Assembly (NCBI GenBank): GCA_019747735.1
Contig: JAIEQL010000040.1
Coordinates: 3,179-67,178 of the forward strand
Source: Chthoniobacterales bacterium
GTDB taxonomy: Bacteria > Verrucomicrobiota > Verrucomicrobiia > Chthoniobacterales > UBA6821
DNA: 64,000 nucleotides
Direction of reading: 5' to 3'
Shown here one piece after another: positions 2,953 through 39,906 of the stretch (within the stretch, counting starts at the first letter, position 1; every line of letters starts with the position of its first letter). Made by a program: the position numbers and the translations under genes. Under the pieces are notes generated by a model. The model made no database searches, had not been told where the DNA came from, and worked only from the letters and a program-made list of their open reading frames with translations.

Positions 2953-3414
2953 ATGGATTCACTGACCATCAACTCTATTAGCAATCTCCTTTTCAAATTT
3001 GCCAATAATTTTGACTTGAAAAAGTGGGATGAAATGGAGCGTTGCTTAGCCTCACAAGTCGATTGCGATTACACCAGCTTGCGTGGCAAAAAAGAGATCC
3101 TCACAGCCAAAGAGTATGTGCATCAGCGCAGATCAGCATTGGAGCCCCTTCAAATGCAGCATCTTTTTTCTAATTTAGAAATAGATCTTCTCGGCGAACA
3201 TCAGGCAGCCTGCCGCTGTTCCGCATTGATCTTACGGAAACGAGAAGAAAAATTTTTTAACACTCATGCGATTTACGAATTCACTTGCGTGCGCGAGCGA
3301 GGAGTGTGGCTGATTTCAGCGATCAAGCAAACGGTGCTTTGGAATGAGGGAGATACTGAGATTCATTCGGGAGTAGCAGCCTTACTTCTCCAGCCACTTC
3401 CTAACAGGAGTTAG
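2953..3414 (+). CDS. SnoaL-like / NTF2-family protein
   Basis: 153 aa. N-terminus FKFANNFDLKKWDEMERCLASQV.DYTSL resembles SnoaL_4/NTF2-like proteins. Confidence 0.4.
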   Translation: MDSLTINSISNLLFKFANNFDLKKWDEMERCLASQVDCDYTSLRGKKEILTAKEYVHQRRSALEPLQMQHLFSNLEIDLLGEHQAACRCSALILRKREEKFFNTHAIYEFTCVRERGVWLISAIKQTVLWNEGDTEIHSGVAALLLQPLPNRS

Positions 3415-18014: not shown

Positions 18015-18135
18015 TTTGGCTAGTCAAGAGTATATGAATTAATGCGTTGACCTTGCTCACACAATCTCACATAGAGACTATGAAGATAAAAAAGAGAGAG
18101 CAAGAGTGGGACAATTTTCGTCTTCATCGGCGCCT

Positions 18136-18309
18136 TAGAGCATATTAAAAAATTCTGTAGCCGCTCATTGCGTCGTCGCTTCGGTGCTCGCTCCATCGAG
18201 TATTGGCTATACACTTCCTCGCTGTGTGGCTCAGCTCCTGGCACTGCATCGACTACAAAAATTTTTAATGATGCTCTAAAATGGCTATAGTTTTATTTAA
18301 AATGCTCTA
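18136..18309 (-). mobile_element. MITE-like element, family A copy 1 (GAGCAT...ATGCTC termini, TA flanks)
   Basis: About 170 bp with TA at both ends. It is near-identical, as reverse complement, to 32229..32402. The TA at 18308..18309 is part of the GH1 stop codon. Confidence 0.8.
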
Positions 18310-32095: not shown

Positions 32096-32228
32096 ATTTT
32101 AGGTTTTTTTTACGCAGGAATTAATTCCTAAAATTCATTCGAGAAAGGTATAAACTCTTTGTTATTCTGAGGAGCAATGAAAAAAGCGTTCATTTATCAA
32201 CAAGACTCTTTTGCTGGTACACTCGGGC

Positions 32229-32402
32229 TAGAGCATTTTAAATAAAACTACAGCCATTTTAGAGCATCATGAAAAATTTTTGTAGTCGATGCAGTGCCAG
32301 GAGCTGAGGCGCACATCGAGGGAGTGTATAGCCAATACTCGATGGAGCGAGCACCGAAGCGACGACGCAATGAGCGGCTACAGAATTTTTTAATATGCTC
32401 TA
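32229..32402 (+). mobile_element. MITE-like element, family A copy 2
   Basis: TA|GAGCATTTTAAAT...ATTTTTTAATATGCTC|TA. It differs from the reverse complement of 18136..18309 at only about 10 positions. Confidence 0.8.
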
Positions 32403-32579
32403 GAAGGGAATGCCTGCTCTACTAAAAGAAGCTATCTACTCTTCTTTTCATGAAGGAGTGTCGCGTTTATTTCTTTTGACTCACTTTTCAAAAAAACATT
32501 GTTTTGAGATGTTGAGTTAAGTTGATTTATAAGTATTGGTTCCAATTTTCTAGAAATTTCTAGCCAACTCTAAAAAATC

Positions 32580-35500
32580 ATGAAAAAACTTCCCCTTGTT
32601 TTTCTCCTGGGCACTCTCGCGCTCGCACCTGTGCGCGTGAGTGCGATGACGGAAGCGGACAAAAAAGAAGAGCATAAAAAGTCGGGTGATTCAAAAGGAA
32701 CCCTCCCAAAAAACACCGACGAGAAATGGCTCAAAGCTCATGAAAAAGCCATTGGGGAAGTTAATAGTCCTCCAGTTAACAACAACACGGAAACTGAGAT
32801 TGAGGTATTTGTTGAGAAGGGTGAAATCATCGAGGATAACACTCTGAAACCGACTTCCAATGCTGATGCTCAACCCAACTCGTCACTAGTTAACGCTGAT
32901 GAAGAAAGTGAAAAGGAAGATCTTTTCAATCTAGATGTTTTAGAACAAAGACTACAAGAGGCTCGAGAGGTCGTTGCTGATTTACGAGGAAAGGGGACTG
33001 CGCTTTCAGAACAAGAACTCAGCGGTCTTTATCAAAAGTGGACTAATCGATACGAACGTTACGAAAAAAAGTCAGATATTTTTGAGCGAACGAATAACAT
33101 TGGAACCATCGCAGGGCAGCAAATTGAAGAGCGACTAAAAAAGCTTTTAAAAACTTCTGCTGAGGCTATGCAAGCGCTTAAGCAAAGCTTAGAAAACATT
33201 ACTCAAGGTTGCGCAACACGCACTGATGATGTCGGCCACTTTCACTTTAAAAAAGAGGAACCTAACTTAGAAGCGCTTGTTAGTTCCTACGATTACAGCA
33301 CCACAGAGAATCATTCAGTCTTTTGGACAGGATGGCATCCCAATTCTTCTCAATGCAATTTTGAGCGAGCTAAAGAATATGCAACACGCACTAATAAAAA
33401 AGTTTTAGAGATAACTCCAGGAGGAGAGAGGCTGGGAGCACAGGGTTTTCATAATCCAGAGTCTTACCTTAATAAGCGTGATGCCGATTTTATTTGGGGA
33501 GTTGCTTCTAGGAGATTTGTTGAAGGAGCTTCGGGACATGTGGTCGCTTTTGTGTTAGAGAAAGTCGATCCCTTTACAACTTATCGCAAAATGGAAAAGC
33601 CAGTATTGAAGAGCAAGGAAACGGCTTTCTTGAGCGAAGTTATTGTTAAGCGAGATCAGAAGCTATTGCTCACAGAGGCTGAGCAAGAGTTATTTGAGCG
33701 CGAGCAAGCAGTAGAAAAAAAGCTTCATCCTCTTTTTCAAAACGTCAGAACTGCATGGGAGAAGATAGGGAATTATTCCGCCTTTCATCCCGATAACATT
33801 CGCGACTTTTTAGGGAGCATTGATGTTAAGAACCAATCGACCTCAGTCCAGCAGGAGCTCTCTCAGTTTGCTTCCCAGCTAAATCCCTTTACTAAAAAAG
33901 TGAAGGCTCTCTCCGAGGCTTGGGATGAGCTTCGTAAGGCCATTTACAGTTTTCAGCATGAGGGTTTAGAAAATGCACATATTCAGCAAGTGAGTAAGGT
34001 GCGAGAAAAATTTCGCGAGTTAGAGCAGCTTGAGACGGTTTCTAAAACATGGAGTGAAGAATATGACCGCTTTAGGGAGGCTATGCAGTTTTTTGATTAT
34101 CAAATTTTCAAAGCTTATCAAGAGAGGGGCGAAATGGACAAAGCAGCTCGATGGAAAGAAGAGACGAGGATTTATGAAGAAAAACAACAACAACAAATGC
34201 TACAGCAATCTGCTGCACAATTTATCAGAGGGAAGATTATCACAGGGCTTTCTCACTTTGATGACTCTCAAGATTCAAAAAAAGAGTGCTTCCAACAAGA
34301 AGTCTCCATTGATGATATGCCTCCTCTTTTTTCTCAAGAGAAACAATCAGGAACAGTTATTCCAGAAACACCTCCCTATTTGAAGAGCTTCAATAGATTA
34401 AAATTCATTAATCCAATGTTTGCTCTTATAAGGCTGCTTGGCGATTTGCAACAATACATAAAACCAATTGAAGAAAAGGAAGGGTTAGCCAAAAGTTTTT
34501 TTATAACGAGTCCATTGCTAGATAATTACAGGACTTTCTTTGGTAGGCCTACTTATAAAGAGACTATCAATTTTCTTGTCGAGAAATTAGAAGAGGTTCA
34601 AGAATCAAAAATTGAAGAAAGTCTCAATAGTATTACGAAAGACAATGCTATCCTCCAAAGTTACAGCACGACTGCTGAGCTAAAAAATCTCTTAGCTTGG
34701 ATAAAAGAGGAGCATGGTAAATACCGACAAGAAAAACAATGCCTTAAAGAACACGCTGAATCTATTCGAGATGATGAAAAGACAGACTATTCTGACTTTG
34801 ACTGTTGGATATATAAAAAGAAAAAAGAAGAACTCTCACGCCTAGAAAATGAGAAGGAACTTTTGCCTAGTCTATCGTCAAGAATTGACGCTGTCATTTT
34901 AGAAATAGAGAAAACAACAAAAATAGCAAACGACGACTATCATTATACAATAAAAAAACTTACTCCTGAAGCTAGACATGAAGCTGCCATTGCTGAAGGA
35001 GAGAACAGGATTGAACAAGCTGATGCAGCTATGGAACAAAGTGAAGGAAGCTCTTTTTCTAAAAAAGCTACTAAAGAAGATCCTTATGCACCTTATCAAA
35101 AGTTTTATAACTTACTGGACATCTTTGATAAAAAAACAAAACAGCATGCAGAGGCTACTAAAGAAACAATTCGTGCTTACAAAGATACGATTGATGTTTA
35201 CAAAACGCCCCCTAAGGAAAACGGGGAAGAAGTCTCTCCCGCCATTCCTTACGCAGAATGTTTTGAAAGTACTCAGTGTTTAAATGAGGAAAACTTATTA
35301 CTAATAGGAAATGGGGGAAAGAGAACTTTATCAAACAACAGACTGGAAGATATTGTAAAAAAAGATAGTGATAAGGCGAAGGAAAAGGAAAAGGAAGTAA
35401 TTAATAAAAGCTCTTTTTGGGAATATCGAGTTTGGGGTTCTCCTAGCCTTAATGAAGCACGTGAAAATGTTCAAGCTGCTGAAAAACAAATTGAAAGACG

Positions 35501-35966
35501 TGAGAATATTTCCAGGAAGATTACAGAACAAGCAACAGAAATTCAGAAGACTCAAAACACGTTAGCTCAAAAAAAAGAAGCTGAAACAGAGCTTGCTAAA
35601 GAAAAAGAAAAAGTTACAAAGCAAGCTGAAGAAGAGCGACAAAAGACCTTAAAAGAAAACCAAAAAGAGATAGAAAAATTTTCAAAAAAACATGAGAAAG
35701 ATTTGAAAGATTTGTCTTGCGAACTCTCTAATCAGGAAAGCTTAGAGCAACATAATAAGCACATAAAAAGCAGAATAGTCAATCTTAGTAAAGAGATAAA
35801 AGAAAAAAAAGATGAGATAAAAGAGATAAGAGAAAAAAATAATATAACTACTGATACACCCCTTCTTGATCTCTATAATGGAATCAAAAGTTTGTTTTCT
35901 TGTCCTTCGCATATAACATCTAATGAGGTGAAATGTGCACCACCTCCAGAAGATTTAAATAATTAG
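32580..35966 (+). CDS. Secreted 1128-aa coiled-coil protein with an ADP-ribosyl cyclase/CD38-like domain (about aa 215-358)
   Basis: Signal peptide is MKKLPLVFLLGTLALAPVRVSA. Motifs VFWTGW, EYATRTNKKVLEITPGG, FIWGVASRRFVEGASGHVVAFVL and TTYRKMEKPVL parallel the Aplysia cyclase / CD38 motifs. The rest is K/E-rich helical sequence. Confidence 0.7.
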   Translation: MKKLPLVFLLGTLALAPVRVSAMTEADKKEEHKKSGDSKGTLPKNTDEKWLKAHEKAIGEVNSPPVNNNTETEIEVFVEKGEIIEDNTLKPTSNADAQPNSSLVNADEESEKEDLFNLDVLEQRLQEAREVVADLRGKGTALSEQELSGLYQKWTNRYERYEKKSDIFERTNNIGTIAGQQIEERLKKLLKTSAEAMQALKQSLENITQGCATRTDDVGHFHFKKEEPNLEALVSSYDYSTTENHSVFWTGWHPNSSQCNFERAKEYATRTNKKVLEITPGGERLGAQGFHNPESYLNKRDADFIWGVASRRFVEGASGHVVAFVLEKVDPFTTYRKMEKPVLKSKETAFLSEVIVKRDQKLLLTEAEQELFEREQAVEKKLHPLFQNVRTAWEKIGNYSAFHPDNIRDFLGSIDVKNQSTSVQQELSQFASQLNPFTKKVKALSEAWDELRKAIYSFQHEGLENAHIQQVSKVREKFRELEQLETVSKTWSEEYDRFREAMQFFDYQIFKAYQERGEMDKAARWKEETRIYEEKQQQQMLQQSAAQFIRGKIITGLSHFDDSQDSKKECFQQEVSIDDMPPLFSQEKQSGTVIPETPPYLKSFNRLKFINPMFALIRLLGDLQQYIKPIEEKEGLAKSFFITSPLLDNYRTFFGRPTYKETINFLVEKLEEVQESKIEESLNSITKDNAILQSYSTTAELKNLLAWIKEEHGKYRQEKQCLKEHAESIRDDEKTDYSDFDCWIYKKKKEELSRLENEKELLPSLSSRIDAVILEIEKTTKIANDDYHYTIKKLTPEARHEAAIAEGENRIEQADAAMEQSEGSSFSKKATKEDPYAPYQKFYNLLDIFDKKTKQHAEATKETIRAYKDTIDVYKTPPKENGEEVSPAIPYAECFESTQCLNEENLLLIGNGGKRTLSNNRLEDIVKKDSDKAKEKEKEVINKSSFWEYRVWGSPSLNEARENVQAAEKQIERRENISRKITEQATEIQKTQNTLAQKKEAETELAKEKEKVTKQAEEERQKTLKENQKEIEKFSKKHEKDLKDLSCELSNQESLEQHNKHIKSRIVNLSKEIKEKKDEIKEIREKNNITTDTPLLDLYNGIKSLFSCPSHITSNEVKCAPPPEDLNN

Positions 35967-36011
35967 GGTATTAGTGAAAATGTTGTTCGAATAGGGACAA
36001 AAATGAATTAT

Positions 36012-36203
36012 CCTTAAAACGTGAATGGGCATGAATAATATTTTGTAAGGAGTTGGTTCCAATAGGTTTTTTCAACCGGTGCGGCGTACCTTAAGCCATA
36101 GCTTGCTGTGGCGCTCCTTTTTATACATAAGCTTGCGGTTGGAAAAAATTATTGGGGCCAAGTATATTGCAAAAGATTATCATGATCCGTTCACGTTTTT
36201 AGG
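36012..36203. mobile_element. MITE-like nested palindrome, family C copy 2
   Basis: CCTTAAAACGTGAATGGGCATGAATAAT pairs with ATTATCATGATCCGTTCACGTTTTTAGG. Inner repeats are gttggttccaatagg / ccaataatttt..ccaacc. It ends 2 nt from the stop of the convergent SUMF1 gene. Confidence 0.7.
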
Positions 36204-36204
36204 A

Positions 36205-38457
36205 TTATCGGAATCTCCAAAAAAGATTTAGAAGACCATCTATGGTAATACCAAAACCAGCCATAGCATTCTCAATATCTTTTCCGTAATAAGCACAAAC
36301 AAGGCCTCCTACAATTAATCCGCCAGGGATAAGAATATCAAGAGGAGGTGGCAATAGTAGAGCAGCTTCAGCAGTAGCTTCGATAGCAGCTTCGATAGCA
36401 GGGGTAGCAGCAGCTCCTTCCTCCACGACGGCTTCTTCTAGTAAGGAAGCTGTGGTTGGCGTTGCCCTCACACCAATCCACGTTTTTAGGTATCGTTGTA
36501 TAGCCTCCGGAATGATAAGACCAAAAGTCCAATTTAAGATATTCATACTGGCAGTACTTGCATTCTCAGCAAAATAGGATGGTGACAAATCGTTCCAAGT
36601 TTGCTTAAGGCCATCCCAAAAACGAGCACCTAGTCTTAGCACTCCATACTCTACCTTATGAGCAGGTGATTCTGGTGGTGGTGGAACATTGTAGACCAAA
36701 CGGAATCCAATGGTATTGGTTTTGGTACCTATAGGAATAATCCTTCGCATCGAAGTAATACCTATTTCTCCGGTAATAGGATTAATATTACCATCAAGAC
36801 TCTCGCCACTGTCACTACTCTTTATCTCTGATTTCCACGAACCACCTCGCAGAGCAAAGTCCCATCTCGGCTTAACACTACCTTCAATCTCAATGGTAGC
36901 ATTACGAAACAAAGTCCATTGATCCACGTTCCCAGACATATCATAGAGACCAAAAGGGCTTTTCGTTTTTTTAAAAAATCCTACAGGAGTTATGTAAGGT
37001 GCATTACTCTGAGTATAATGACCATCTAAACAAAAGTTAGCATCATTATTGTTTCTTGTTGCCAGTTCTATACTATTTGTTGGTAGCTCGTCAGTTCCTG
37101 TTCCATACTTATAATAACATTGATTAGTACCTGGAAAACCATCCCAATCTACTGTTGCTTTTTGATAGTATGCAGCCTTATACCACTGGCTTTCTGTGGG
37201 AAGAGACCATCGTGCACCAACATTGGCTATCACAGTGATAGAGATAGCTCTTCCTGTTTTAATTGTTGTTACAGTTCCTTCACTAAGAGTCCCATTAAAA
37301 CTCTTGATAGGAGGATTAGTAATAGTCTTATAAATATCATTAGTTGTATAAATAATATCAAAAGCTCCCGTTTGTGTTGTCCCAGGCCCCTCTTCTCCAA
37401 GTGGTTGTCCATTTTCTATCCAGTTACAAAAAGAAGCAGCTCGGACTCCTGAAATATAGGTAATTGGAAACTTTTCTCGTCCTGGTATCACTTCATAATC
37501 ATAAGGATTGGTCTCTCCAATGCGAGTGATACAGGCAATATTACTATCAGACCCCATGTTGGTATCATACAGTTCATAACGATCATTATTGGTAGCCACT
37601 GCTTTTAAAAAAGCACAGTACTGCTGGGCAGTAACATCAGTAACGCCGATCTGAAAAACATTAGATACAGAACCCAAACCACCCCACTGGAGCTGGTCAT
37701 GTTGATTGCCAGGATCATCAATAGTCGCTAATTCAATTTTAATTGGTTTTGTATTTTTTATTATGACTGGTAGAGCATCATTTCCAGATGTAGATGAGTT
37801 ATCAGGTGAATCCATCAGAAGTGGACTTCCTCCTAGTAAAGGAATGATAGCTCTATTGTTTTCTGGACTTTCTATTGTTGATAAAGAATTGCCTATCGAA
37901 AAAGGAATACCCTTATTTTCGATCATAGCATCACTGCTATCCACACAATCTATTACAAAGTTGGCTCCACTACTCCCTAAGCCAAGCATTGGATCAACAT
38001 TACTTAATGCATTATTACTACTTAGGCGATAGTGAGCATTGGGTGTTGGTAAGAATTGAAAAGCAAGAGCATCACCTCCATTAGTTATGGAAGTTAGGTC
38101 ATAAACACCAGTTTCTGTGTTAGCATCTCCTCCTCCATTTTCCTTCCAATTACAAAACCGAGCTTGCGATATTTTATTAACATAAGTAATAGCAGCAGTG
38201 GTACCTCCTAAAATAGAATAATGATAGGCCCCAGGATGTCCATATCGCTTGATCATTGGAAGGGCATATTGCATTTCAGGATCGTAAAGATGATAAAGAT
38301 CAGTAGTGGCTACCTTGTTAAGAAAATGACAATAGTCATCAAGGGTCACGAGACTTGTAACATATTTAATATCTTCTCGTGCAGAACCAACCTGGTGAAA
38401 GGCCATTAGGAAAAAACTGCAGCAAAAAAAGAATTTTTTTAAAAAAGAAGAAACCAT
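36205..38457 (-). CDS. SUMF1/FGE (formylglycine-generating-enzyme-like) repeat protein with signal peptide and C-terminal membrane anchor
   Basis: Two N-terminal FGE half-domains (FLNKVA...ARFCNW and FLKAVA...ASFCNW) plus the C-terminal signature LYDMSGNVDQW...LRGGSW. The hydrophobic tail is ILIPGGLIVGGLVCAYYG. Confidence 0.75.
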   Translation of the reverse strand: MVSSFLKKFFFCCSFFLMAFHQVGSAREDIKYVTSLVTLDDYCHFLNKVATTDLYHLYDPEMQYALPMIKRYGHPGAYHYSILGGTTAAITYVNKISQARFCNWKENGGGDANTETGVYDLTSITNGGDALAFQFLPTPNAHYRLSSNNALSNVDPMLGLGSSGANFVIDCVDSSDAMIENKGIPFSIGNSLSTIESPENNRAIIPLLGGSPLLMDSPDNSSTSGNDALPVIIKNTKPIKIELATIDDPGNQHDQLQWGGLGSVSNVFQIGVTDVTAQQYCAFLKAVATNNDRYELYDTNMGSDSNIACITRIGETNPYDYEVIPGREKFPITYISGVRAASFCNWIENGQPLGEEGPGTTQTGAFDIIYTTNDIYKTITNPPIKSFNGTLSEGTVTTIKTGRAISITVIANVGARWSLPTESQWYKAAYYQKATVDWDGFPGTNQCYYKYGTGTDELPTNSIELATRNNNDANFCLDGHYTQSNAPYITPVGFFKKTKSPFGLYDMSGNVDQWTLFRNATIEIEGSVKPRWDFALRGGSWKSEIKSSDSGESLDGNINPITGEIGITSMRRIIPIGTKTNTIGFRLVYNVPPPPESPAHKVEYGVLRLGARFWDGLKQTWNDLSPSYFAENASTASMNILNWTFGLIIPEAIQRYLKTWIGVRATPTTASLLEEAVVEEGAAATPAIEAAIEATAEAALLLPPPLDILIPGGLIVGGLVCAYYGKDIENAMAGFGITIDGLLNLFWRFR

Positions 38458-38714: not shown

Positions 38715-39314
38715 TCAAAGAAGGGAATTCAGTGGTAGTGCAGTAATGACTTTTTCAATGCGGGTATCAGGTATAAGCCAAAACAATGCCACCAGCACAT
38801 AGACTCCTCCGGCAATTCGAGGATTAATAAACGAGAGACCGATTCCAACAAGGTAAAGAAACAGAGAGGCCTTTCCCTTCCAATCGTTGCCTAAGGCCTG
38901 GCCTAATGTTGATTCACGTCCCCCCTGGTCTCTCACGATGAGATTCTGAAGGATGAAGTAAGCTTGAGCCGCCAGAAAAAGAACACCCCCATAGATTGCA
39001 TAAGGAAGTTTAGTAAAATGATTCTGACCTACCCACCCTGTAACAAAAGGAAAGAGGGAGAGCCAGAAAAGGAGATGGAGGTTCGCCCAGAGAATACCAC
39101 CAGTGACTCGGCGGCAAGCCTTAATGAGATGATGATGATTGTTCCAATAGACACCGACATAAAGAAAACTCAAGATATAGCTTAGAAAAACAGGTAAGAG
39201 TGGTCTCAAATCTGAGCACTCAGTACCGTGTGGGACCTTCATTTCGAGCACCATGATAGTAATGATGATGGCGATTACACCATCACTGAAAGCTTCAAGC
39301 CGGTTCTTTTCCAT
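38715..39314 (-). CDS. TMEM175-family potassium channel (DUF1211)
   Basis: [24 protein letters not shown] matches the RxxxFSDGV signature in TM1. Six TM segments. The start is moved to Met46 of the track ORF. Confidence 0.7.
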
Positions 39315-39906
39315 GAATTTTAATAGCAATCTCGGCAACATGTCGGCCTTGAAAGCGAGCAATCGCCAACTCCTTCGCGCTTGGTTGTCGGGAACCGTCC
39401 GCTCCAGCAATGGTACCAGCTCCGTAGGGACTTCCCCCCTTGACCTCACTGAGATCGTTTAATTCAGGACAGGAATAAGGAACCCCAGTAAAGATCATCC
39501 CGTGATGAATCAACGTCGGCAGAAAGCTCAGGATAGTCGACTCATTGCCTCCACCGGTTCCGGTGCTGGTGAAGACACCAGCAACCTTGCCAACAAGTTC
39601 CCCTTTGACCCAGAGGCCCCCAGTCTGATCAAAAAAATTCCGCATCTGGGCGGCCATGTTGCCGAAGCGCGTAGGTGTTCCGAAGAGAAAGGCATCATAG
39701 TGGGCAAGTTCTGCTGGAGATGCGATCAATGCCTTTTGCTCGGTCTTAACTCCATGCCTCTTGGCAATCTCCTCTGACATCAGCTCGGGAACACGTTTTA
39801 TGGTTACCTCGACCCCGTCGACAGAACGGGCGCCTTCGGCCACAGCCTCGGACATAGTTTCGATGTGACCGTACATGGAGTAGTAGAGAACGAGTAGTTT
39901 TGTCAT
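39295..39906 (-). CDS. wrbA: NAD(P)H:quinone oxidoreductase, type IV (WrbA flavodoxin-like)
   Basis: [25 protein letters not shown] and the PTRFGNM...F.D motif. Confidence 0.9.

Follow-up and report, generated by a model that had tools for sequence, protein, structure and literature searches.

An ADP-ribosyl cyclase-fold protein with a predicted Sec leader and a long variable tail from a Chthoniobacterales bacterium: a candidate NAD(P)+-depleting effector

A 64,000-nucleotide stretch of DNA from a Chthoniobacterales bacterium (phylum Verrucomicrobiota; assembly GCA_019747735.1, contig JAIEQL010000040.1, forward-strand positions 3,179 to 67,178; hereafter the window) carries a complete gene (32580..35966, + strand) for a protein of 1128 residues in which residues 215-358 (33222..33653, +) almost certainly form a domain of the ADP-ribosyl cyclase (ARC) fold, known from CD38 in animals and as Tox-ARC in bacterial toxins. 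Our preferred reading, to which we assign a probability of roughly 0.6 as a whole, is that the protein is a Sec-exported, catalytically competent Tox-ARC protein that acts outside the cell, as an effector or exotoxin that depletes NAD(P)+.

The gene was taken from the list of open reading frames (ORFs) and its product is an exact match to P0001 in our set of relatives. It is identical to MBX9743287.1 (K2W99_07120), which comes from a Chthoniobacterales metagenome-assembled genome (MAG) and which NCBI labels a 'hypothetical protein'. An earlier note on this DNA, made from the letters alone, had picked out the domain by eye; the length of the ORF and the domain boundaries that it gave are exact, and the motifs that it quoted (SVFWTGW, KEYATRTNKKVLEITPGG, DFIWGVASRRFVEGASGHVVAFVL and TTYRKMEKPVL) are all present in the protein. 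The same note regarded the family as essentially metazoan, a view that is out of date. Tox-ARC domains were described in 2012 in polymorphic toxins from a wide range of bacterial phyla, where the immunity protein is usually Imm74, and animals and fungi were proposed to have gained the fold from bacteria (Zhang et al., 2012; PMC3482391). Two bacterial ARC toxins, Tac1 (PMC12356396) and Pantoea ARCtox (PMC12605009), were solved and assayed in 2025. These papers report about 1075 homologues on carriers of the type V, type VI and type VII secretion systems (T5SS, T6SS and T7SS), and show that both toxins hydrolyse NAD(P)+ and that the catalytic Glu is essential (PMC12356396, PMC12605009).

Homology and predicted fold of the ARC domain

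Relatives of the domain were collected in an exhaustive phmmer search with residues 195-420 against 1.84 billion representative proteins. It yielded 214 relatives at E <= 1e-3, with matches centred on residues 233-349. The counts of residue conservation and domain position given below were made over 150 retrieved relatives, and profiles were derived from a trimmed ARC-domain alignment of 42 members (A1).

Compared with all PDB sequences, the A1 profile gave significant matches to ADP-ribosyl cyclase enzymes only: Tac1 (9OUF; E = 5.4e-20), the Pantoea ARC toxin (9RO8; E = 2.7e-18), Aplysia cyclase (1LBE; E = 3.9e-13), bovine CD38 (3GH3; E = 8e-10), human CD38 (9GOX; E = 1e-6) and BST1 (1ISF; E = 5e-4). 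A profile-profile comparison of A1 with CD38 using hhalign returned a probability of 94.7% (E = 6e-8), and the query domain scored 133 bits (E = 4e-43) against a hidden Markov model (HMM) built from A1 without its own sequence. The Pfam family PF02267 is matched individually by 26 of the 42 members of A1. Two relatives, P0011 (27.3 bits) and P0012 (26.3 bits), both at about 2e-11 to the query domain, exceed the gathering score of 25, and the paralogues P0003 and P0006 have near-threshold matches that cover most of the model. PF02267 is thus reached by way of relatives, and not by the query taken alone.

The direct searches are indeed bare. By itself, the 1128-residue protein has no match to PF02267 or to any other Pfam family, none by sequence in the PDB and nothing relevant in NCBIfam, in each case even at E <= 10. 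A word-indexed homologue search produced zero matches, the protein itself included, and a scan of the full-length protein against genome contigs found zero relatives. BLASTP against human CD38 (a sequence identical to PDB entry 9gox_A) gave one match of 16 residues (W-x3-SRRF-x-E-x-A), with an E value of 0.029 for this single pairwise comparison. The resemblance to CD38 is significant only via intermediate sequences.

Structure prediction behaves in the same way. The AlphaFold model made from the single sequence is unusable (predicted local distance difference test score, pLDDT, of 39). With an alignment, AlphaFold2 gave a model with a pLDDT of 89.8 and a predicted template-modelling score (pTM) of 0.82 that consists of four strands plus helices. 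It has the two-lobed α/β organization of the family, in which a helical lobe and a four-stranded sheet enclose a cleft. When this model was searched with Foldseek, as had been suggested, the top 21 matches were all ARC enzymes and the best was again 9OUF (E = 2.2e-6, TM-score 0.61). At about 145 residues, the domain is the size of the minimal core crystallized for Tac1 (residues 458-602), and its nearest kin are minimal bacterial ARCs of this length rather than CD38. No second copy of the domain was found in the 64 kb window.

The empty Pfam and PDB searches, the short BLASTP match and the poor single-sequence model are what might be expected if the motifs resembled those of CD38 by chance and there were no ARC fold. 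Against this, the profile, profile-profile and structure searches converge on ARC enzymes only, with strong statistics. The profile, hhalign and Foldseek results refute a chance similarity, for which we retain a negligible probability, and they agree with one another on the ARC/CD38-like domain that was first seen by eye.

Active site

Residue equivalences were read from the profile columns of the HMM built from A1 minus the query sequence, to which CD38 was also aligned. W249 corresponds to CD38 W125, at a position that is aromatic in all 145 relatives scored (71 Trp, 71 Tyr and three Phe). E277 corresponds to CD38 E146 (129 Glu and 12 Asp of 149), W306 to W189 (135 Trp and 12 Phe of 149) and S310 to S193 (Ser in 146 of 149). 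E339 is the counterpart of CD38 E226, Aplysia cyclase E179, Tac1 E573 and ARCtox E356, a Glu that 146 of 146 relatives retain. HMMER and hhalign reproduce all five residue pairs of the by-eye alignment with CD38 and Aplysia cyclase, and the catalytic and stacking residues that it named are kept at equivalent positions. Placement of the motifs at non-equivalent positions, which had been set in advance as grounds for refutation, was checked specifically; they occupy the same profile columns as in CD38.

Three further residues, T279 (149/150), G282 (150/150) and G319 (148/149), are near-invariant across the relatives, and the W-E-W-S-E set is retained in every paralogue of the protein (described below). 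The retention of the catalytic and stacking residues indicates, at the level of sequence, purifying selection on catalysis. The spacing of the W/E/W/E tetrad is 28/29/33 residues, nearer to that of Pantoea ARCtox (26/24/33) than to that of CD38 (21/43/37). Of the features that set the metazoan CD38/BST1 subfamily apart (about 250 residues, a disulfide framework and extra helices), the query domain has none. C259 is the only cysteine in the domain, so that the eukaryotic disulfide pattern is absent, as was remarked previously; C211 lies just upstream, and both positions are not conserved across all paralogues.

These observations bear on the idea that the domain is catalytically dead, or has been repurposed for binding, as one module of a fibrous structural protein at the surface. 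Most of the 1128-residue protein is low-complexity helical sequence that lacks an enzyme signature, and the query domain alone falls below the Pfam threshold, both of which would suit such a role. However, every catalytic and stacking residue is kept here and in the paralogues, and T279, G282, G319 and E339 are kept with them. We consider a dead or repurposed domain to be very unlikely. By analogy with Tac1 and ARCtox, the domain is instead probably an active NAD(P)+ glycohydrolase.

Domain architecture

The first 22 residues (32580..32645, +) read by eye as a signal peptide, with a basic n-region, a 14-residue hydrophobic core and V-x-A at positions -3/-1, and without a lipobox Cys. Cleavage is predicted after VSA, between MKKLPLVFLLGTLALAPVRVSA and the M that follows it. 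A Sec signal peptide ahead of the domain was also part of the original description, and the leader is conserved in the paralogues P0002, P0005 and P0006.

A linker (residues 23-214; 32646..33221, +), delimited by blastp of the paralogues and by a heptad test, joins the leader to the ARC domain, for which the HMM envelope spans residues 215-365. The linker opens with an acidic/polar stretch, which is followed by short heptad segments at residues 108-145 and 180-213. It is conserved only among the paralogues of the MAG and has no Pfam or NCBIfam match.

The ARC domain is followed by a helical module (residues 359-528; 33654..34163, +) that was defined from alignments A2 and A3. The module is conserved, with W393, I396, W448, A466, Y507, I509, A522 and W525 invariant, and among the 150 retrieved relatives it is confined to P0001-P0008. 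Searches for its homologues in the protein database, and for sequence matches to it in the PDB, came back empty. Regulation or the binding of a partner may be its role.

The remainder of the protein is a variable K/E-rich tail (residues 529-1128; 34164..35963, +), recognized from its composition and the heptad test. It had been described as about 770 residues of K/E-rich coiled coil, of which the composition holds and the extent of coiled coil does not. The 763-residue stretch after the HMM envelope contains 13.6% Glu, 11.7% Lys and 5.9% Pro plus Gly, while strong periodicity, in a rough heptad test with shuffled controls, is confined to about residues 954-1093 plus short patches. The tail is probably helical. 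It has no Pfam match at E <= 10 and no recognizable domain or C-terminal sorting signal, and the tails of the paralogues and relatives likewise give nothing credible in Pfam. A trimeric-autotransporter or M-protein-like anchor was considered and rejected, as there is no anchor domain and no common C-terminal motif.

The tail-coding part of the window (34001-36000) has a G+C content of 35% and an AT skew of +0.25, compared with a G+C content of 42-45% elsewhere. The low value fits the Lys/Glu/Asn-rich codons of the tail, and a foreign origin is not required.

Paralogues and relatives

At least five paralogues are encoded in the same MAG, namely the 1128-residue protein and its closest relatives P0002, P0003, P0005 and P0006; two further proteins are partial. 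The genes of the other paralogues lie on other contigs, and the proteins range from 1128 to 2470 residues in length. They are alike from residue 1 to about residue 585, with 31-40% identity by blastp; leader, linker and ARC domain fall in this region, together with about 170 residues more. Beyond this point the tails diverge and have no C-terminal motif in common. That the head is conserved while the tails are diversified points to a part for the tails in anchoring, spacing or target binding. ARC-plus-tail proteins are also encoded in a second Chthoniobacterales MAG.

This arrangement differs from that of the wider family. In about 125 of the 150 relatives the ARC domain ends ten residues or fewer from the C-terminus, for example in RHS and filamentous-haemagglutinin proteins, and a Verrucomicrobia RHS protein (P0174) also bears an ARC domain. 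Outside the subfamily, the sequences nearest to it are toxin domains at the C-terminus of long proteins, among them RHS and filamentous-haemagglutinin/CdiA-type ones. The 1128-residue protein might accordingly be read as a conventional antibacterial polymorphic toxin, with an immunity gene that is located elsewhere or was missed and with an unrecognized contact-dependent mode of delivery. Signal-peptide delivery, by the type II secretion system ('T2SS'), has in fact been listed for Tox-ARC (Zhang et al., 2012; PMC3482391). Polymorphic toxins, however, carry the toxin at the extreme C-terminus behind an N-terminal trafficking domain, whereas the ARC domain here occupies residues 215-358 of 1128, and no RHS, PAAR, LXG, TPS/FHA or other trafficking domain was detected in the protein with Pfam or NCBIfam. 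It is also the tail that varies rather than the toxin, the reverse of polymorphic-toxin logic, and an adjacent immunity gene (typically Imm74) is missing from the neighbourhood in the window, with no candidate ORF downstream. We regard a conventional polymorphic toxin as improbable.

P0038, an ARC-plus-tail protein likewise of 1128 residues, has no signal peptide and has Phe at the W306 position; its gene occupies 8001-11387 of contig L005. The contigs associated with it (L005-L007, from JGI metagenomes 3300063001, 3300062495 and 3300061954) contain almost exclusively ORFans, plus a TIP41-like gene of eukaryote type and YecM, a pattern that hints at a large virus or at a bacterium associated with a host. 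The cluster of P0028, a protein with an N-proximal ARC domain, includes members from the protist transcriptome collections MMETSP and EukProt; these members could be real eukaryotic genes or protist-associated bacterial sequences.

Genomic context

The upstream neighbour on the same strand is nadC (PF01729/PF02749), as had been pointed out. A spacer of 484 bp separates it from the ARC gene and contains, as context only, a palindromic dispersed repeat of about 176 nt (32229..32404, +) that was identified as an inverted repeat. A second copy, about 96% identical, is located at about 18134-18309 (- strand). The repeat folds into a long hairpin (z = -5.2) and looks like a miniature inverted-repeat transposable element (MITE) or an element of the repetitive extragenic palindromic (REP) type. 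It belongs to no Rfam family at the gathering threshold, and the 64 kb window as a whole is free of Rfam matches. Operonic coupling of the ARC gene with nadC was considered and rejected, since the two genes are kept apart by this spacer with its repeat.

Independent assemblies of the same genome (L001-L004; Logan SRR15085116-121) all break just after nadC, at about window position 32155 and some 75 bp short of the dispersed repeat. These contigs consequently lack the ARC gene, and exact look-ups of the protein, as of P0002, found no contigs.

At the 3' side of the ARC gene there is a terminator-like hairpin (36095-36112). From the stop codon (35966) it is 238 bp to the convergent gene at 36205, and this interval contains no ORF of at least 60 residues, so that there is no adjacent immunity gene. 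Out to about 10 kb the genes are of housekeeping type, and the wider surroundings encode NuoB/C, RNase D, NadC, WrbA, AccA, BipA, a TMEM175-type channel, a rhodanese, a tRNA methyltransferase and an ABC-F ATPase.

The convergent neighbour itself (36205-38457, -) encodes a protein of 750 residues with an N-terminal hydrophobic leader, a formylglycine-generating enzyme (FGE)-sulfatase (SUMF1-like) domain and an Ala/Gly/Ile-rich hydrophobic C-terminus. Two genes downstream of the ARC gene, at 38715-39449 (-), is a bacterial homologue of the TMEM175 endo-lysosomal potassium channel family (PF06736; E = 1e-31).

The genomic context invites comparison with bacterial ARCs that lie outside conflict systems and have no immunity gene, among which is Nac1, a Sec-secreted enzyme that makes cyclic ADP-ribose (cADPR) (Colautti et al.; PMC12356396). 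On this precedent, the 1128-residue protein could be a secreted ARC that is no weapon and that acts in signalling, through cADPR or NAADP (nicotinic acid adenine dinucleotide phosphate), or in scavenging, by degrading external NAD+ to nicotinamide and ADP-ribose for uptake; the adjacency of nadC would then reflect a shared NAD economy. The gene likewise has a leader, housekeeping neighbours and no adjacent immunity gene, and nadC is directly upstream on the same strand. Three observations count against such a role. The cyclase bias of Nac1 is attributed to an Ala, whereas the corresponding Glu (E277) is kept here and in the paralogues, as it is in the hydrolytic toxins. Five paralogues of 1100-2500 residues with diversifying tails are not obviously needed for scavenging or signalling. 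Finally, the spacer with its dispersed repeat lies between nadC and the gene, and the remaining paralogues are found on separate contigs, which leaves a functional link to nadC unsupported. A non-toxic, Nac1-like role is therefore unlikely in our view, although it comes first among the alternatives.

Proposed function

If the protein is indeed an extracellular NAD(P)+-depleting effector or exotoxin, a plausible course of events is as follows. The Sec leader would carry the enzyme out of the cytoplasm of the producer, which would make an immunity gene unnecessary. NAD+ or NADP+ would stack on W249 and W306 within the cleft that separates the helical lobe from the four-stranded sheet, and the nicotinamide-ribose bond would be cleaved with E339 as the essential catalytic Glu, which may stabilize a ribosyl oxocarbenium or a covalent intermediate while nicotinamide departs. 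Since E277 (CD38 E146, Tac1 E516) is retained, the main product is expected to be linear ADP-ribose (phosphate) with little release of cADPR, as from an NAD(P)+ glycohydrolase that is no dedicated cyclase. Loss of this Glu (E516A in Tac1, a natural Ala in Nac1) is known to shift the products towards cADPR (PMC12356396). The module at residues 359-528 and the variable tail would most likely provide a stalk, an anchor, or a part for delivery or target binding.

An exported NAD-consuming enzyme is the natural reading of an ARC domain that follows a Sec-type leader. For deployment of the 1128-residue protein outside the cell as an effector or toxin, we judge the odds to be about even, and several points weigh against the proposal. 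The leader is predicted to be of Sec type from inspection by eye alone. Sec export in a diderm reaches the periplasm only, and neither the protein nor the window was found to contain a secretion system, an anchor or a sorting signal. The ARC domain is not C-terminal, unlike in most of its relatives, and for this reason the delivery logic of polymorphic toxins is not directly transferable. To these may be added the lack of any Pfam or PDB match to the single sequence, noted above. Passage beyond the periplasm would thus have to be assumed, and the target might be either a eukaryotic host or prey, or other bacteria.

A more specific and speculative form of the proposal is an inverted, AB-toxin-like or fibril-like class of ARC effector, with a conserved N-proximal NADase head, a private helical module for regulation and long, fast-diversifying tails by which the cells of eukaryotes (protists or invertebrates) would be bound or entered. 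Bacteria of the Planctomycetes-Verrucomicrobia-Chlamydiae (PVC) group might use such proteins to drain host NAD(P)+ or to inject calcium signals of the cADPR/NAADP type. The hints are circumstantial: the paralogous expansion in two Chthoniobacterales MAGs, the leaderless head-plus-tail relatives in ORFan-rich contigs that encode a eukaryote-type TIP41, and the one cluster of relatives with members from protist transcriptomes. We rate this class as doubtful.

Bacterial ARC enzymes are already a well documented and widespread toxin family, which takes away most of the surprise of finding one here. The analysis nevertheless turns a 'hypothetical protein' into a testable candidate NAD(P)+ glycohydrolase and adds Verrucomicrobiota (Chthoniobacterales), a phylum not named in the ARC surveys cited, to the lineages in which the CD38 fold is in use. 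Published bacterial forms are either a C-terminal warhead with a delivery domain and an immunity partner or a Nac-type enzyme outside conflict systems, and the subfamily typified by P0001-P0008 fits neither. What is new is the architecture: an enzyme at the front behind a plain Sec leader, a private module of about 170 residues, long variable tails, at least five copies per genome and no adjacent antidote gene. Should the tails turn out to serve in delivery or targeting, the layout would represent a new deployment route for NAD-depleting enzymes and offer a handle on the partners of these uncultured Chthoniobacterales. A protein that is no more than a secreted NADase would be an ordinary addition to a family whose wide distribution had already been shown.

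Comparison with known ARC systems

CD38, BST1 (CD157) and Aplysia cyclase have a homologous catalytic core with equivalent active-site residues, and they too are exported or ecto-enzymes. They differ in being about 250 residues long, with extra helices and five or six disulfides, whereas the domain described here is a minimal core that lacks those cysteines.

The RDTND (DUF1) domain of the Vibrio vulnificus MARTX (multifunctional autoprocessing repeats-in-toxin) toxin (8K9Z/8KA1; PMC11266601) is an ARC-like NADase that matches the model structurally with an E value of about 2e-3. The two are distant (profile E = 0.4), and RDTND is activated by calmodulin via the adjacent RID and belongs to a toxin with MARTX repeats, type I secretion system (T1SS) export and autoprocessing, none of which is present here. 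It does offer a precedent for an internal, non-C-terminal ARC-like module in a giant secreted toxin that targets eukaryotes and that relies on a neighbouring module.

Among the bacterial toxins, PAAR-ARCtox of Pantoea ananatis (9RO8; Martinkus et al., 2025; PMC12605009) has the same fold, the same W/E/W/E tetrad and a near-equal spacing, but is a PAAR-fused C-terminal toxin of a T6SS with a cognate immunity protein. Tac1 from Streptococcus parasanguinis (9OUF; Colautti, Kim & Whitney, 2025; PMC12356396) is the best match in both the profile and structure searches. Its minimal core is likewise about 145 residues long, its E516, W540 and E573 correspond to E277, W306 and E339, and hydrolysis of NAD(P)+ is expected in both proteins. 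Tac1 is the C-terminal domain of an LXG protein that is exported by a T7SS (T7SSb) and is partnered by Imm74. In contrast, the 1128-residue protein comes from a diderm Verrucomicrobium and has an N-proximal ARC domain behind a Sec leader, a unique module, a tail of about 600 residues and no adjacent immunity gene.

Nac1 from Actinophytocola oryzae (PMC12356396) is the closest precedent in genomic context. Nac-type enzymes are found outside conflict loci, have no immunity gene and optionally carry a Sec signal, as Nac1 does, and the same is true of the gene described here. A substitution of the E146-equivalent Glu, which favours release of cADPR, is a further mark of the type: Nac1 has Ala at this position and releases cADPR, whereas the 1128-residue protein and all of its paralogues keep the Glu. 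The published description of Nac1 gives only a signal peptide and a Tac1-like fold and does not mention a long tail, while the protein described here is a multi-module protein of 1128 residues that belongs to a paralogous family.

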